Part shown: one piece after another, positions 1,113 through 24,692 of the stretch
Numbering within the stretch: position 1 is the first letter of the stretch
Layout of the letters: each line of letters starts with the position of its first letter
Virus record (IMG/VR): IMGVR_UViG_2645727640_000023
DNA from: a virus
Taxonomy: Duplodnaviria; Heunggongvirae; Uroviricota; Caudoviricetes
DNA: 27,591 nt
Reading direction: 5' to 3' (one strand)
Notes under the pieces: generated by a model
What the model saw: only the letters and a program-made list of their open reading frames with translations
What the model was told of the DNA's origin: nothing
The model's database searches: none
Position numbers and translations under genes: made by a program

Positions 1113-2185
1113 TCAATTGTCCCCGGTGTTAACAGTTCCGTATTCTCCGAACGCTGGATCTCTGTCGGGAAACGCACTTCAAAATCATCCAGACCGGTAA
1201 CACCTGCCACCGCACGGATAATACGGGAGGGGGCAAGTGCGCCGCCCGGCGTCACCTCATTAAAAAACATGGTATTAATGGCGTGGGTAATAGCCTGTTT
1301 CAGTTCGGCTGTCTTCGGTGATATATAAATCCGTGGATTTACCGGCTTTGCCTTTGGCGCAAATACAGTGACATTTACACCGTCAGGCTGTCCGACAATC
1401 AGACCGGTGATCGGGTCAGTATGACCGGCGATATAATCCGCCACGCGTTCCACGTCTGCCGGTTGTGGAAAAATATTGCTCCGGTTATCCATAACAAACG
1501 TCACCCCGACTGTGCCACCGCCTTTCCATGTCGGAAAACACCAGGCACGGGTAACGCCGCTGACTTCACGCGCCCAGCGAACATAATCAAACTGATTACC
1601 GCCGAACGGAGGATACTGGACACGATATTCCAGCCGTGACAGCAGCTCCGCTGCACTCTCAATATCAGCCCCACCGGAAAACCCTTTTACAGTGATGGCA
1701 TCGGAAACAACACAGGCAACCGGGGTGATCAACGTTAAAAGGGTATTCTCACCGGTATTTCCTGCTTCACCGGCAGCCAGTGCGGTAACGGTAATTTCCG
1801 TCGTTCCTGCACGGTCAATCACAATGGCATCAGCCAGGCTGTAAACCACACCATCAGCACGCTGCCAGCGTGTACCGGCAGGAATGGTGGTCGCTGCCGA
1901 TGTGGTGACAGTCAGCGGGCCGCTGGCGGCTGTCGCCTGTTTGCGGCGCACGCCCCAGAACCGGCAGTGCTCCAGCAACTCATCTTCATCTGCTGTCGAC
2001 GGGATAATCTGCCGTCCAACCCATGAAATATGCTCGTGACAACCGGCAGCAAGGCCCGCCTGAGCATAAGCAATGGCACTCAGCGTTTTTTCACGGGCCT
2101 GAGGCCAGCTACCCGGCAGGCGCTGTTCATTATTCTGTTCTGTACGGGCAATCAGCGATGATAATGTCGGTGGTGAATAAGCCAT
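1103..2185 (-). CDS. W: Baseplate J-like protein (Mu gp47-like)
   Basis: ORF track 360 aa; size and position between the gp46-like and gp48-like genes match the Mu baseplate block. Confidence 0.8.
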   Translation of the reverse strand: MAYSPPTLSSLIARTEQNNEQRLPGSWPQAREKTLSAIAYAQAGLAAGCHEHISWVGRQIIPSTADEDELLEHCRFWGVRRKQATAASGPLTVTTSAATTIPAGTRWQRADGVVYSLADAIVIDRAGTTEITVTALAAGEAGNTGENTLLTLITPVACVVSDAITVKGFSGGADIESAAELLSRLEYRVQYPPFGGNQFDYVRWAREVSGVTRAWCFPTWKGGGTVGVTFVMDNRSNIFPQPADVERVADYIAGHTDPITGLIVGQPDGVNVTVFAPKAKPVNPRIYISPKTAELKQAITHAINTMFFNEVTPGGALAPSRIIRAVAGVTGLDDFEVRFPTEIQRSENTELLTPGTIEWL

Positions 2186-2623: not shown

Positions 2624-3213
2624 TGCATTGGCCCCGTGGTTCCGCCGCTGTCGCCACGGTGGATATGCTTATCCGTCGATTTGCCATTGATGATGGCATC
2701 CGGGGCAGTAATATTGCTGTCGAACTGGCTTTTACCTTTAACGCCCAGACCTTTCTGGATCTCAACGTCGCCGGTAAACGTGGTTCTGGGTGTGTCAACG
2801 GTCATTCTTTCATCAGCGTAAACCTCAACCGTTTTACAGGTAATGATGCAGCGTCCGTCCTTTGTCAGCCTGATACGATGCCCCTCGTGGTGGTAAATGC
2901 CTGCATCACCCGGTTCAAGATTTGTCGGGCGGTAGCGGCGGTCTTCCACCACAACGGCAATCCCCTGATCACGTTGTGCGCCTACACAGGCAATCAGCGC
3001 CTCTGCTCCCGGCAGGGGAACGCTGAAATGCCCGTAATTTTGCAGGCGCTCCACTTCATCAGATTCCTCATCATCCAGCAGGCCGACCTGCAGGTTCTGA
3101 ACCTTTCGCCCGTCGTTAATCACGTTAACAACAGCGCGCGCAAGCATCAGGCGCACACGACGCATCAGCGGCGTCAGCAGGCGGTTCAGGGCGGAATCAT
3201 TTACTCTTTCCAC
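2620..3213 (-). CDS. Q: Baseplate central spike protein (Mu gp45-like)
   Basis: ORF track 197 aa ([32 protein letters not shown]...); typical spike length; overlaps neighbours by 4 and 13 nt. Confidence 0.8.
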   Translation of the reverse strand: MERVNDSALNRLLTPLMRRVRLMLARAVVNVINDGRKVQNLQVGLLDDEESDEVERLQNYGHFSVPLPGAEALIACVGAQRDQGIAVVVEDRRYRPTNLEPGDAGIYHHEGHRIRLTKDGRCIITCKTVEVYADERMTVDTPRTTFTGDVEIQKGLGVKGKSQFDSNITAPDAIINGKSTDKHIHRGDSGGTTGPMQ

Positions 3214-4340
3214 GGCGGCGTTTTCTCCGGGTGTCTGCGATAATAATCTTCAACCAGCGCATCAATACCGCCGTTACTGTCGCCGCCTTTCCTGTTTTTA
3301 CGGTCGCTTTCAACCGGCACCAGAAAGCCTTCGCGTGGTGCAAGGCTGACGCGGGTTTTCAGCCCGTCCTGGTCATTCAGTATCAGGGTGACTTTGCTGA
3401 CCAGTAATTCCGTGGTTTTGATGGCATATTTCGAGGCATCAATAGTGACCAGCAGGTTCGGCATCCAGAGTTGCCCGTCCTTGCGAGTCCATCCGTCAAT
3501 TTCAGCCTCAAAGGTGATGGATTTTGCCAGTCTGCGGCGTTGCTCACGCAGGGCGCGGGCCTGTGCATCCTTCGCCGTAATTTTGCTGTCAGCAATGATG
3601 ATCATCGGTCTGTAACGGGTTACATCACTGTCAGTGGCGGTCCCTTTCCGGGAGACGATACTTTTCGCATCAATATCATCACCCTCAGCACCGTTTGCGC
3701 GGGCATACCCCTTGACGGTGTATTCGCTGAACCGGTCGCGGAAGTCTTCCTCAAAATCCAGTGTCAGCAGATTTTCTCCGAGAACCAGCTCATCAGTGGC
3801 TGTGCTGGCAGCCCGGCTGAATACCAGCTCTCCTGCGGCATTGCTGGTCATCAGTACACCGCGTGCGCGGGAGGCACGCACCAGCGCCTCATAAACGGTT
3901 TCTGAATGGTCCAGCGTGAAGCCGGGAAAAGCTGCCGAACTTTCCTTATCGGAAAGCTCCCAGCGAACGGTAACGCCATAAGGAGCGCACAGGTCACGCG
4001 CAATCTGCTCCAGTGTGCGGTTTTTCCACTGTCCGCCACTGTAAACGGCAGCACAGTCAATCAGGTCAGCCGTTTTGTCACGTCCGGCGATAGTGATTTT
4101 CATGCTGTCAGCGGTCATCTGGCGTCGCCGCGAATCGATATAACCGGTGCAGACAATCTGCCCGTCGATTTCCAGCGTGAACGCCTTCCCCGGTGCCAGC
4201 CCGGATAAATCTGTACCCGGTGGCACATTCACCCCCAGCTCAAAATATCCGGCTACGGATTCAATGGAGCGGGTGACAGAGACTGACGTCCAGCCGGTAA
4301 AAAGCCTGCCATCCGTTCGCAGCGTGACGGTATTACTCAT
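3201..4340 (-). CDS. P: Baseplate hub / late-control gpD-like tail protein (Mu gp44-like)
   Basis: ORF track 379 aa ([36 protein letters not shown]...); immediately downstream of N, as in Mu. Confidence 0.85.
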
Positions 4341-5820
4341 TAATCACCTCAATACTGACACCACCGGGAACAAACAACGGGTTGCTGATACCGTTCCTGC
4401 GGGCCAGCCGTTGCCAGTTCCGGCTGTTTCCTGTGTAACGGTACAGAGCCACCATTGCAGGCATCGTCTCCGGCAGGCGGTGCGTTTCACTGCCTGCCAG
4501 TTGCAGCCCGCGTTTTTCCAGGTCGGCAACAACCAGCAGACGCAGTTGCGTAAGCTGAACGCTGTCTGTCGAAAAGCCCTGCTCAGATGCCGTCAGAATG
4601 ACGGTATCCAGCGCTGCCCCCAGCATGGCGGCTGTTTTTCCGATATCGGACACACTTTCAAATACCGGGGGCGTGGCTGTACCACTGTCTGAAAAGGATA
4701 CCTGTGAAAAGCCGCCGTCCGGGGTTATGGCAGTTAACTGTAACTGTCCCTGTGTGACGGTAGCGGATGTGCTGCTGGCCCCGCTGGCTGTGCCGGTTGT
4801 GGTGGACGGGGCATCCAGTACAGGTGCACGGGCGGCATTATCCATCCGGCGACTGAAATCCAGTGCCGCAGTCAGTGCCTGGCTTGCTGCCTCCGCCCGG
4901 TATGTCTGTGCTGCTGCCAGCATGACGTAGTTCAGTGTGGCAATATTTTTTTCTGCAACCGGACTGTTGTACGAGGTTGTGATTGTCCCCTGTCTGCCTG
5001 CGGTGGCGGCATGGCGACGTTCGAATCGCTGCGCCAGACGGTTCCATGTGGAAAATGCTGTCCGGGTATCGCATAACGATGAAACGCCGGACAGCGCCCC
5101 CATCAGCGAGGAGGCCAGCATGGCAGGCTGGTTAATCAGGCTGGTCACAGAGCCTTTCATCGCAGAAAGCGATCCCATCAGACCGCTGACAGTCTGCGTA
5201 ACCCCCAGATTGTCCACCGCATCACTGATATCATCGATGACACCGGTTACAGCTTCCATCACGGCGGTTGCCGCCGCAGTGCCATCTTTTACGGTCTGCC
5301 AGACAGAGGACAGCGTATCTCCCAGAGAACCGGTTACAGCAACGGCCTGTGCCGGTACGGCTGCACTGGTGTCTGTCTCTGAGTCCGGGGCAGTATCCTG
5401 CAACGACGGATAAACGGTAACGGTGAACGCGTAATAATTCAGTTCATCCGCTTTAGTGCGGCATTCCCATGAATCCACCATGACGTCCACAGTGCCGAAA
5501 TCAGGATGTACCAGCTCACCGCTACCCGGAGCATCAAGAGCATCCATCAGCGCACCCGCTTCATCTCTGGCTGTTTCTGCGTTGCTGTTCAGAATGCAGG
5601 CGCTGAATGTACGGGAGCGAAGCTTTTTCCCCAGGTCATTGACGCCGCCGGTATCACGTAACGGGTACTCGCGTTTAACCAGGCGACGTCCGCCAGCCTG
5701 TTTTTGCTCCTCGATGACGAGAAACGGCACGTTACGAAACGTGCCTTTGCCGGTTGTTTTCTTACCACCGCTGATTTTATCCCGGACAGCATTAACGGCA
5801 TTTAAAGCATCTTCAAACAT
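4333..5820 (-). CDS. N: DNA circularization protein N-like tail protein (Mu gp43-like)
   Basis: ORF track 495 aa; Ala/Ser/Thr-rich; directly downstream of the tape measure gene. Confidence 0.8.
4700..4735 (-). promoter_or_regulatory. Candidate third late promoter motif (P_P) embedded in the 3' part of gene N
   Basis: Minus strand CCATAACCCCGGAC (plus 4721-4730 = ggggttatgg) matches the P_lys and P_I motif and lies about 380 nt upstream of the P gene start. A similar short match also occurs inside F near 15201, so chance is not excluded. Confidence 0.3.
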
Positions 5821-22857: not shown

Positions 22858-23247
22858 TTACAGAAGTGAGGGCTGGTACTGGCGGTATTTCAGCCGTCGC
22901 ATCCGGCGAATGGCCTTGTAAACCGTATTGAAAGTGACACCATAACGGGTGGTCAGTTCGCTGACGTTGCGACCGTTAAAATCATTCCAGATACGCAAAT
23001 CCCGAATCAGCGAGTCCAGAACCTGACCGCGTGGAATGTAGACCTGACCGCCGCCCAGATGCTTACAGATAGCCACAACAATCTCCAGTGAATGGGCAGG
23101 ATCAACACCCAGCCGGGACAATTCCCCGCGCAGTAAATCGTTCAGCTCCGCCAGCAGTGCCGGAAAGCGTGACGTATCCTCTGCGGGATTGTCAAGATGT
23201 GCCAGGATGGTGTCATCCTGCAAATCACCAAATAAATCTTCCGTCAT
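22858..23247 (-). CDS. mor: Middle operon regulator Mor (Mor/C family transcription activator)
   Basis: ORF track 129 aa (MTEDLFGDLQDDTILAHLDNPAEDTSRF...GGGQVYIPRGQVLDSLIRDLRIWNDFNGRNVSELTTRYGV...); paralogous to the C ORF; ATGA junction with gemA; strong terminator palindrome directly downstream. Confidence 0.9.
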   Translation of the reverse strand: MTEDLFGDLQDDTILAHLDNPAEDTSRFPALLAELNDLLRGELSRLGVDPAHSLEIVVAICKHLGGGQVYIPRGQVLDSLIRDLRIWNDFNGRNVSELTTRYGVTFNTVYKAIRRMRRLKYRQYQPSLL

Positions 23248-23795
23248 TGTGCCATCCTCCGTGTCTTTCTGGCATGGGCATAAGCCGCCGTCATGGCATC
23301 ATAGCCGCGCAGTTCACGCCCGGACGGACTGACTGGCAACGGAAGCCCGTGACGGGAAAAGGCTTCACGAATACAGCGGATATGCCACTGCTTGAGAGTT
23401 TCGAGAACAATCAACAGGGTGTCGCCATGACACCACGCCAGCGTGGAAACACCCTGTCCGCCATTACGTTTCGCCGTCAGGCGCTGAACATATTTATCCA
23501 GCGCCACATCACCGCCATCGGTAATAAAACCGTCTTCTGCCATCTGCTGCCAGACTTTGTATACCTTCTCGCGGGGCGTGACATGCCCCTTAAAGCGGCG
23601 ACGTGGATGTTTATTCAGCTTCTTAAAGCCGCGTTCTTTCATGGCATCGAGCACCTGTTCCAGTTGCGTAACCGTCAGCTCGCGGCAACTGATTTTGCCC
23701 GTTTTCTGCATCAGAAAAGCTCGGTAAGTGTCGTCGTCGAGTTGTAGCTCCCGACGGGCGACATGGATTAATTTAATCAGGGATGTGCGATTCAT
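23244..23795 (-). CDS. gemA: GemA-like early protein (Mu gp16 family)
   Basis: ORF track 183 aa (MNRTSLIKLIHVARRELQLDDDTYRAFLMQKTGKISCRELT...); immediately upstream of mor as in Mu. Confidence 0.85.
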   Translation of the reverse strand: MNRTSLIKLIHVARRELQLDDDTYRAFLMQKTGKISCRELTVTQLEQVLDAMKERGFKKLNKHPRRRFKGHVTPREKVYKVWQQMAEDGFITDGGDVALDKYVQRLTAKRNGGQGVSTLAWCHGDTLLIVLETLKQWHIRCIREAFSRHGLPLPVSPSGRELRGYDAMTAAYAHARKTRRMAQ

Positions 23796-23813: not shown

Positions 23814-23835
23814 AGGCGGTGCTGCAACACCGCCT
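23814..23835 (-). other. Hairpin in the gap between the opposite-strand ORF and gemA
   Basis: AGGCGGTG-CTGCAA-CACCGCCT (8-bp stem), 18 nt upstream of the gemA start codon and 29 nt upstream of the plus-strand ORF start. Confidence 0.3.
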
Positions 23836-23864
23836 GAATTTACACATCAATCAGAGAGGATTTT

Positions 23865-24131
23865 ATGGAAAATAATGTACAACCTTATGATGTTGCAGGT
23901 TATGCGATTGCATCAGCACTGGTGCGCCTTCTGGTGAAGAAGGCGATCATCACCGCAGAAGAGGGCCAGGCCATTTTCAGCTCTTCAGCAGAGATTTTAA
24001 AAGATGCGCCTGCAATAAGAACAAGCCGCCGCGAAAACATGCAACTGTCAAAGATCATGGAAGACATTATCAGTTCGTTAGACCCAGATGCTGACGGATC
24101 TCAAAAGCCTCAAACACATGAGCGTCAGTAA
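23865..24131 (+). CDS. Opposite-strand hypothetical protein (88 aa)
   Basis: ORF track 88 aa; GAGAGGA 5 nt upstream of ATG 23865; G-initial codon bias typical of real genes; occupies an otherwise empty 274-nt minus-strand gap; 3' end overlaps the 3' end of the convergent 100-aa gene by 62 nt. Confidence 0.45.
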   Translation: MENNVQPYDVAGYAIASALVRLLVKKAIITAEEGQAIFSSSAEILKDAPAIRTSRRENMQLSKIMEDIISSLDPDADGSQKPQTHERQ

Positions 24132-24372
24132 CAATATCCTGGTCTGATAACCCCAGCCTGCGGCGGATGTACTCCTCGCGGGCTGTTTCATTTTGCAGTG
24201 CCACTACTGTTTCCAGACGATTCATTTCGCGGTTGATAATGTCACGGACTTCTCTGGCGGTGAGATTATGCTTAATACCATATTCAACGATAGCGCGAAC
24301 ACGTTCCAGCATCCCTTTTTCAGCCATGACGTTATCAATATTAAGGGGAGTAAATTTATCTTCATTGTTCAT
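24070..24372 (-). CDS. Hypothetical early protein (100 aa)
   Basis: ORF track; ATGA junction with the upstream gene at 24369-24372; predicted helical, no motif I recognise. Confidence 0.65.
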   Translation of the reverse strand: MNNEDKFTPLNIDNVMAEKGMLERVRAIVEYGIKHNLTAREVRDIINREMNRLETVVALQNETAREEYIRRRLGLSDQDIVTDAHVFEAFEIRQHLGLTN

Positions 24373-24692
24373 TTTGCGGCCCTCAGAATAAATTCAGGAT
24401 AAAATTTCAGACTCATTTGCCGTAACACATCCAGTGCAGCAACGGCTGCTGATTTATCGTTGCCATCAGCAATAGCGCGGAGATTTTCAATAATCCAGTG
24501 AGGACTCAGTGACTCAGCAATAATGCCAAACCGGTACGCCATGACCTCATCAATAGCTTTTTCATGAGACGTCTCATATACAAAATTCACAAAGTCATGC
24601 ACTTCTTTTTTCGGCAAACCACCGGCAATCAGCAGGGCGGCAAGCTCTTCTGATTTTGAAAATACACCATTATTCATATCACTCACCTTCAC
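24369..24692 (-). CDS. Hypothetical early protein (107 aa)
   Basis: ORF track; overlaps the upstream zinc-ribbon gene by 14 nt. Confidence 0.65.
   Translation of the reverse strand: MKVSDMNNGVFSKSEELAALLIAGGLPKKEVHDFVNFVYETSHEKAIDEVMAYRFGIIAESLSPHWIIENLRAIADGNDKSAAVAALDVLRQMSLKFYPEFILRAAK

Follow-up and report, generated by a model that had tools for sequence, protein, structure and literature searches.

Gene 15 of a Mu/SfMu-type prophage, a probable terminated coding unit opposed to the early operon, with a proposed prophage-expressed accessory role

Prophage morons are autonomous promoter-gene-terminator insertions, as in the lambdoid phages HK97 and HK022. A candidate for a comparable arrangement lies in the stretch of viral DNA analysed here (27,591 nucleotides, IMG/VR record IMGVR_UViG_2645727640_000023; hereafter the window), where an open reading frame (ORF) of 88 codons plus stop, at positions 23865-24131 on the plus strand, opposes the early operon and corresponds to gene 15 of phage Mu (gp15/Mup15). 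Like a moron, gp15 is a single extra gene with a putative terminator of its own directly downstream, a deviant GC content and an orientation independent of the operon, and it is present or absent among near-identical phages and dispensable for lytic growth. In contrast to the morons, no promoter was identified for gp15; moreover, the low-GC module includes the neighboring gene 14, and the putative terminator is located in the coding sequence (CDS) of this neighbor and not in an intergenic gap. The nearest demonstrated analogue of the layout appears to be that of the Pseudomonas transposable phage Fc02, whose olg1/olg2 and gene 10 are transcribed in the lysogen and act in superinfection exclusion (PMC9936078). 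Fc02 is likewise a Mu-like phage, with small opposite-strand genes that overlap an early gene in antisense (PMC9936078). Nevertheless, these genes are found beside the repressor and ner, not beside gemA, and bear no sequence similarity to gp15, and it is for them, not for gp15, that function and transcription have been demonstrated.

We propose, with a probability of roughly 0.6, that gp15 is best explained as a monocistronic opposite-strand unit, for which a prophage-expressed accessory role is suggested more tentatively. Mu is a reference phage, and gp15 is its only early-region gene of reversed orientation, with no known function. What is added here is a settlement of the annotation conflict between gp15 and the minus-strand ORF Mu_54, a putative terminator embedded in gene 14, two unannotated candidate homologues in the same slot, and the placement of an invariant hairpin preceding gemA on the early-strand side, where it probably belongs. 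Beyond these annotation points gp15 would be an ordinary orphan accessory gene of no known function.

The region around the ORF is 99.9% identical to Shigella phage SfMu and 97.9% identical to phage Mu, and the whole window aligns with Mu coordinates ~4.8-32 kb in reverse orientation; we identify it on this basis as a Mu/SfMu-type transposable prophage, read in reverse. The protein is 95.5% identical in amino acids (aa) to that of Mu and 100% to that of SfMu (tblastn), and it matches PHROG 8747 with E = 1.3e-60 over residues 1-88 of 88. This full-length similarity, together with the slot between gene 14 and gemA, the opposite strand and the 3' overlap with gene 14, places it in the family; compared with Mu gp15 and SfMu_16 it has the same position, the same orientation and the same overlap of 62 nucleotides (nt), and we noted no substantive difference, all family members being without an assigned function. 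A sequence-only reading of the window had drawn attention to this ORF, which indeed exists with its ATG start, but had not recognized it as the long-annotated gene 15, an assignment that makes the observation real and not new. The ORF appears in a longer version, 'F-134', in the 1991 left-end record; it was named gp15/Mup15 (NP_050619.1) in the 2002 Mu RefSeq record NC_000929 and SfMu_16 (AIY32315.1) in the SfMu record, and the PGAP annotation of E. coli prophages likewise has the plus-strand ORF. In contrast, gp15 is missing from AF083977, the revised GenBank record of Mu, where Mu_54 is annotated on the minus strand instead, together with a 'semi-early promoter' before gemA and a TransTermHP terminator inside gene 14.

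Several lines of comparison argue that gp15 is, very likely, a real protein-coding gene on the strand opposite to the early operon and under purifying selection. The ORF is intact and always 88 codons long in 22 of 22 first-round loci (Mu, SfMu, E. coli prophages and IMG/VR contigs), and it is also intact in Salmonella, where it has 86 codons, or 90 in the copy whose tail was exchanged for an IS256-family element. Across three sequence lineages, at 45-51% aa identity and ~60% nt identity, codons 1-67 are aligned without insertions or deletions, and the differences by position in the gp15 codon (24/17/38, 27/20/35 and 18/20/42 in the three comparisons) fall predominantly on the third. The ratio of non-synonymous to synonymous substitution rates (dN/dS) is 0.18-0.36 for gp15, in comparison with 0.14-0.22 for gemA and 0.33-0.37 for gene 14 in the same genomes. 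The replacements are also more conservative than in position-matched shuffles, with a BLOSUM62 sum of 123 against 86 +/- 11 (2/5000), and the sequence YDVAGY is retained through five synonymous changes. An intact ORF of the gp15 type, with slot and orientation between gene 14 and gemA unchanged, is found in five diverged lineages, those of Mu/SfMu, STEC388, Salmonella, D108 and the Mu-like element in LC727895, and in the Salmonella prophages the slot and orientation are as in Mu. In all five, a purine-rich Shine-Dalgarno (SD) sequence (AGAGGA, GAAGG or AAAGGA) precedes the conserved ATG at a similar distance. In the window it reads GAGAGGA (23854-23860, plus strand), as described in the earlier reading, although the spacing to the ATG is 4 nt and not 5. 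The view that the ORF is more than a chance frame and is conserved in related Mu-like prophages is therefore upheld by its intactness and by its coding-type substitution pattern.

These data bear directly on the possibility that neither ORF is a gene, the 274-nt stretch being a non-coding regulatory spacer that carries the semi-early (gem) promoter, with ORFs open by chance. A promoter feature is annotated there in AF083977, the family is an orphan one with no functional homologues, and the stretch can be deleted. Nevertheless, three-periodic substitution at ~60% nt identity through 67 codons free of insertions and deletions in three lineages, dN/dS values resembling those of neighboring genes, and the joint conservation of ATG, SD and terminator are not expected of a spacer, and this explanation is already strongly disfavoured.

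A more specific challenge comes from Mu_54, a 55-aa ATG ORF at 23900-24067 on the minus strand, whose existence contradicts the statement of the sequence-only reading that the gap contains no minus-strand ORF. Mu_54 could be the real gene, translated from the early transcript right after gene 14, with the 88-aa ORF as its antisense shadow: it is so annotated in AF083977, it lies on the operon strand with its ATG 2 nt past the gene 14 stop, in the manner of a coupled gene, its frame is open in both the Mu/SfMu and the STEC388 lineages, and its conservation is somewhat above the permutation null (80/5000 and 420/5000). As read from the coordinates, the third codon positions of gp15 and Mu_54 coincide, and because of this, pairwise dN/dS separates the two antisense frames poorly (0.25-0.33 for the gp15 frame and 0.35-0.43 for the Mu_54 frame, with p ~0.05-0.2 for the difference). 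Since this ratio barely discriminates, diverged relatives were gathered to decide the strand, from E. coli genomes, IMG/VR and an exhaustive HMMER search, and it was the Salmonella lineage that was needed for the decision. The locus was present in 59 of 5426 E. coli assemblies (~1% of complete genomes), 27 of the 59 at only ~68% nt identity; IMG/VR contigs added further loci of both sequence types, and the HMMER search recovered the third, Salmonella, lineage.

In all five Salmonella loci (L022-L026) the Mu_54 frame is interrupted by an in-frame stop, while gp15 is intact there. The end of Mu_54 is not kept between Mu (55 aa) and the STEC388 lineage (61 aa), and over the same DNA its identity is 36% as against 50% for gp15. 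Its BLOSUM sums reach 64-76, compared with 123 for gp15, and even the best of them exceeds its null only marginally (76 vs 50 +/- 12, 80/5000). In addition, a single protein cluster is known for it, the annotated ribosome-binding site measures only 3 nt, and the plus-strand terminator and SD of five lineages would be left unexplained. When gp15 was resampled with synonymous codons, the antisense frame stayed open for at least 55 codons in 67% of cases, and Mu_54 is therefore what would be expected as a shadow of gp15. Accordingly, we judge Mu_54 to be non-coding and consider it very improbable that it is the gene at this locus. It is equally hard to credit that the two ORFs form a genuine antisense pair in the Mu/SfMu lineage. 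Two lineages have both ORFs open, each frame scores above the permutation null, and a wobble-aligned antisense frame is the cheapest arrangement for two coding strands, but Mu_54 is lost in the Salmonella lineage, its small margin over the null is what clustered substitutions would produce, and an open frame is, as the resampling indicates, its default outcome. On this comparative evidence the conflict is decided for gp15, with the Salmonella stop as the decisive point, which amounts to a concrete annotation correction: the original gp15 call appears right and Mu_54 wrong.

The 3' side of gp15 provides the second main argument. On the plus strand, a putative Rho-independent terminator of the gp15 transcript occupies 24154-24194, and is formed by a stem-loop of 32 nt (24154-24185) followed by TTTCATTTT at 24186-24194. 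The stem-loop begins 23 nt after the gp15 stop codon and lies wholly within the gene 14 CDS, in antisense. When the sequences were folded, a strong stem-loop was found at the equivalent place after the gp15-type ORF in all five lineages: STEC388 and Salmonella have a 12-bp stem followed by TTTTTGG, D108 has a 13-bp stem followed by TTTTTTG, and the Mu-like element of LC727895 has a strong stem-loop with a T-run. A terminator scan scored a plus-strand terminator in Salmonella and in D108. In a pairing alignment that brings together six sequences from four lineages (window/Mu, STEC388-type, Salmonella and D108), each of the 10 outer pairs is formed in every sequence (60 of 60 cells). The alignment contains two compensatory double changes and four one-sided changes, and the pairing is kept although the gene 14 residues encoded there differ (AREEYIRRRL, ARNAFIRRRL and AHNNIVCREL). 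In each lineage, 96.6-99.7% of the synonymous recodings of gene 14 gave a hairpin less stable than the natural one. We take the terminator, from these features, to be encoded in synonymous sites of gene 14. The T-run is confined to the plus strand, as are the G.U pairs, which would become A.C mismatches on the opposite strand, and the structure is therefore oriented to serve gp15 and not the early transcript. The early strand assigned to the terminator feature of AF083977 (7839-7873) appears to be wrong, and the record thus appears to mis-annotate the locus twice, with Mu_54 in place of gp15 and the terminator on the early strand. Taken together, SD, ORF and terminator suggest that gp15 is probably an autonomous, terminated unit.

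On the 5' side the picture is different. The sequence-only reading had proposed a promoter composed of TTGTAG (23742-23747) and ATTAAT (23767-23772), which match the consensus in 3/6 and 4/6 positions over a 19-nt spacer. This candidate was abandoned: it fails a sigma-70 scan (0 sites found, 1.2 expected by chance), and its -10 element is not conserved, reading ATTAGC in the Salmonella lineage. No sigma-70-like plus-strand site reached the scan threshold in the window, in a Salmonella locus (L022), in D108 (L028) or in LC727895 (L032); these scans cover sigma-70-type sites, and non-canonical or activator-dependent promoters are outside their reach. Since no lineage displays a sigma-70 promoter, it is from the orientation, the SD and the terminator that we infer independent transcription, which the earlier reading had also assumed; of that claim, the conserved SD and the plus-strand intrinsic terminator stand, and the promoter does not. 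A search of Rfam gave no match, and the literature searches retrieved no transcriptome or phenotype data for gp15.

The interval between the gemA start and gp15 contains an inverted repeat, GGCGGTG-N6-CACCGCC (23815-23834), situated 20 nt upstream of the gemA start and occurring once in the window. In all five lineages the stem is invariant and the loop variable. On the early strand the hairpin is followed by a T-rich tract running into the gemA SD, weak in Mu/SfMu (TCTTTCC), and in the Salmonella and LC727895 lineages the scan scored it as a terminator of that strand. In AF083977 it falls within the 'semi-early promoter' feature. We hypothesize that this hairpin probably serves the early strand and gemA, and it could act as an attenuator before gemA-mor or as an operator.

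The distribution of gp15 is in keeping with an accessory gene. Large protein searches recovered the family only from E. coli, Shigella and Salmonella, in Mu-type phages and prophages, and from Mu-like phages plating on Yersinia, and scans of one genome per species did not find it. A clean deletion of 223 bp, corresponding to 23850-24072 of the window, is found in the phages vB_YpM_3 and vB_YpM_23 and in the E. coli prophage JCKP02; it lies between two short repeats, ACATCA and TTATCA. The SD and codons 1-68 are lost, but the stop codon of gene 14 is restored and the GGCGGTG hairpin stays in place. All three carriers originate from the Qinghai-Tibet region, an indication that the deletion belongs to a single lineage. 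Both vB_YpM_3 and vB_YpM_23 form plaques, and gp15 is therefore not needed for lytic growth. The gene is also absent from PhiR68_1, and one E. coli copy (P0004) is frameshifted. The GC content is 46.6% for gp15 and 45.5% for gene 14, in a window of 54%, and the homology between Mu and D108 breaks right after the GGCGGTG hairpin, so the pair formed by gene 14 and gp15 behaves as a mosaic module.

Two further ORFs may extend the family to more distant sequences. In D108 (NC_013594, locus L028), and also in Mu_3F6, an unannotated ORF of 119 aa (1666-2025, plus strand in the locus) occupies the slot and orientation of gp15 and overlaps gene 14 by 53 nt; it belongs to PHROG 38610, matches PHROG 32893, as gp15 homologues do, and aligns to gp15 over the motif FFGITGFMLVGNLMIKLIENGVI / PYDVAGYAIASALVRLLVKKAII. 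In LC727895 (locus L032), a Mu-like element inside an Stx1a phage carries, in the same slot and orientation, an unannotated ORF of 79 aa (1769-2008, minus strand in the locus) with the sequence ALDVAAFTMAGNLMVTLFDKGVISREEA. Both resemble gp15 in slot, orientation, SD, 3' overlap with gene 14 (53 and 20 nt), stem-loop with T-run inside gene 14, to which the scan gave a terminator score in D108 alone, and the N-terminal motif [YF].[VI][AT][GA][YF]...L...L...G.I. They differ from it in their identity, which is only 13-19%, with no direct significant match, and the D108 protein has in addition an acidic N-terminal extension of 30 aa. Homology of the D108 ORF is supported by transitive PHROG matches (E = 5e-7 and 5e-8) and an hhalign E value of 0.004, and that of the LC727895 ORF by the shared motif seen in the alignment. 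We regard both as putative distant versions of gp15, linked through PHROG 32893. An AT-richer module, a clean deletion in viable relatives and the substitution of distant homologues in D108 and another Mu-like element all bear out the accessory nature that the sequence-only reading had ascribed to the gene.

What such an accessory gene may do in the prophage is considerably less certain. The orientation of gp15, opposed to the early transcript, means that Pe cannot drive its expression, and consequently it is most likely made when Pe is repressed. We envisage that gp15 would be made in the lysogen or within minutes of the onset of infection, and that heavy early transcription would collide head-on with it and be fully antisense to it. 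The product would be a protein-level accessory factor, probably acting via protein-protein interaction or oligomerization. Lysogens are reported to express the gem operon constitutively, and Pe is transcribed at a low level in prophages (PMC3820752), so this stretch of the prophage is not transcriptionally silent. The moron reading put forward earlier thus keeps the terminator, the accessory character and the deletability and finds no support for its promoter or its function, and a prophage-expressed, moron-like role for gp15 is advanced only tentatively. Whatever its action, gp15 is a clean, deletable candidate for a prophage-expressed function beside the gemA-mor regulators.

Several observations weigh against the proposed unit and its role. 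The covariation in the terminator is based on four to five lineages; the natural deletion fits an accessory role and, equally, a gene of little consequence; no conserved site emerged from a laxer promoter scan covering the 220 nt upstream of gp15 in seven sequences; and in revising the Mu record its curators opted for the other strand. At the protein level, searches of Pfam, PADLOC, PDB sequences and folds gave no significant match for gp15, the best SHOCT-like match, PF22746 with the homologue P0007, remained below threshold (18.6 bits vs 27), and the structural model of gp15 is moderate overall, with a predicted local distance difference test score (pLDDT) of 65. Finally, literature searches retrieved no paper on gp15 function or plus-strand transcription.

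The role could instead reside in the RNA. In that case the convergent plus-strand transcript would be a cis-antisense or transcription-interference element, the peptide being secondary, and would control gene 14 and Pe read-through into gemA-mor, thereby influencing the early-to-middle switch. The unit lies immediately upstream of gemA-mor, and mor encodes the middle promoter activator; the antisense overlap with the early transcript is complete, with a terminator 125 nt inside gene 14; on its other flank the unit has the conserved hairpin, which received an early-strand terminator score in two lineages; and in D108 the slot is kept where the protein is nearly unrecognizable. Against this, an RNA-only element has no need of purifying selection on amino acids or of a conserved SD and start codon, phages from which the unit is deleted form plaques with a normal gemA-mor arrangement, and no promoter was found. 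We consider an RNA-level role unlikely because the selection acting on the protein is left unexplained. Somewhat more doubtful still is the idea that gp15 and its two flanking, opposed hairpins constitute a lysogeny-specific switch just upstream of gemA-mor. According to such a scheme, the gp15 transcript and protein would keep leaky Pe transcription in the prophage from reading through into mor, or else they might control immunity and so account for 'cim', a classical function of the semi-essential early region that is unmapped; once the prophage is induced, early transcription from the opposite direction would silence gp15. Were it true, gp15 would be a second, previously unrecognized lysogeny-expressed Mu regulator besides the repressor c.

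Returning to the preferred reading, of a protein-level accessory factor, the AlphaFold (AF2) model predicts helices at residues 10-25, 31-46 and 61-72, with pLDDT values of 80-90 only for residues 11-40, and a disordered tail (pLDDT < 50, residues 77-88). Codons 1-67 (23865-24065, plus strand), which contain the three predicted helices, are the part under protein-level selection. The motif YDVAGY...LLV.KG.IT..EG..I is held through synonymous changes, and it is recognizable in the D108 and LC727895 homologues. As modeled, gp15 is a small soluble helical protein whose conserved part, the N-terminal ~50-67 residues, is predicted to form a helical hairpin carrying the motif LLV.KG.IT.EEG..I, which is SHOCT-like but below threshold. 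The tail behaves differently. In the last 20 codons (24069-24128), almost all of them in the overlap with gene 14, the differences by gp15 codon position are 3/7/2, and position 2 of gp15 is, from the coordinates, the wobble position of gene 14; the tail therefore follows the constraint on gene 14 passively, and its length and sequence vary between lineages. In a Salmonella Aberdeen prophage (L026), an IS256-family transposase (Pfam Transposase_mut, 4236-5444) is situated at the 3' end of the gp15 homologue; the element stands between the homologue and gene 14 and takes the place of the tail from about residue 67 onward.

A homology and structure search of the 88-aa protein had been suggested with the earlier reading, and it yielded a PHROG family but no functional family or fold. 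The PHROG matches, to 8747 and more weakly to 32893, are all without function, and the fold searches return only gp15 itself or generic helical bundles. Likewise, no defence or exclusion model of PADLOC-DB matched any of three family members at E <= 1, and the exclusion, immunity or host-modulation function suggested earlier is unsupported by PADLOC, Pfam or fold matches. Weak SHOCT-like matches were obtained for P0007 (E = 1.4e-3) and for P0009 and P0011 (~0.15), and none for the window protein. The likeness to SHOCT and SHOCT-like domains (PF20612, PF22746) consists of L..L..KG.IT.EE...I on a hairpin shaped like a helix-turn-helix; however, SHOCT is typically C-terminal and the gp15 motif N-terminal, and the matches are under the gathering thresholds. 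The best match in a profile search of the PDB, to the N-terminal domain of T4 MotA, was not significant (E = 0.14). Both similarities are leads only. A match to the 1438-aa repeat protein P0006 (E = 1e-23) was discarded as a false positive, being the sum of 12 weak matches to an acidic repeat.

The neighboring genes lie on the minus strand. The gene mor (22858-23247; Pfam Mor, E = 4e-33) is adjoined by gemA, Mu gp16 (23244-23795; Pfam GemA, E = 2.5e-30), which diverges from gp15 over a 69-nt spacer. On the other side, gene 14, Mu gp14, formerly E15 (24070-24372; 100 aa, PHROG 6075), is the early gene that converges with gp15 and hosts its putative terminator. The tail-to-tail overlap between the C-terminal tail of gp15 and the last 20 codons plus stop of gene 14 spans 24070-24131. 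Several details of the sequence-only reading are borne out by these coordinates, namely the 274 nt that separate the start of gemA (23795) from the stop codon of the 100-aa gene (24070), the 62-nt extent of the overlap and the antisense relation that a gp15 transcript would have to the early transcript. The position of gp15 as a singleton also agrees with the Mu RefSeq annotation, which contains no other opposite-strand CDS at 4.3-33 kb, the part of Mu covered by the window. In two Salmonella Mu-like prophages (L022 and L023) a second opposite-strand gene, of 111 aa and with no Pfam match, is located at 3052-3387 (plus strand in the locus); this gene and a neighboring one of 63 aa interrupt the pair gemA and mor, whose members lie side by side in Mu. 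Finally, an ORF of 102-107 aa with no Pfam match, SfMu_14 (24369-24692, minus strand), lies between genes 13 and 14; its counterpart is absent from Mu, where these two genes abut, and it represents another small mosaic difference in the semi-essential early region.

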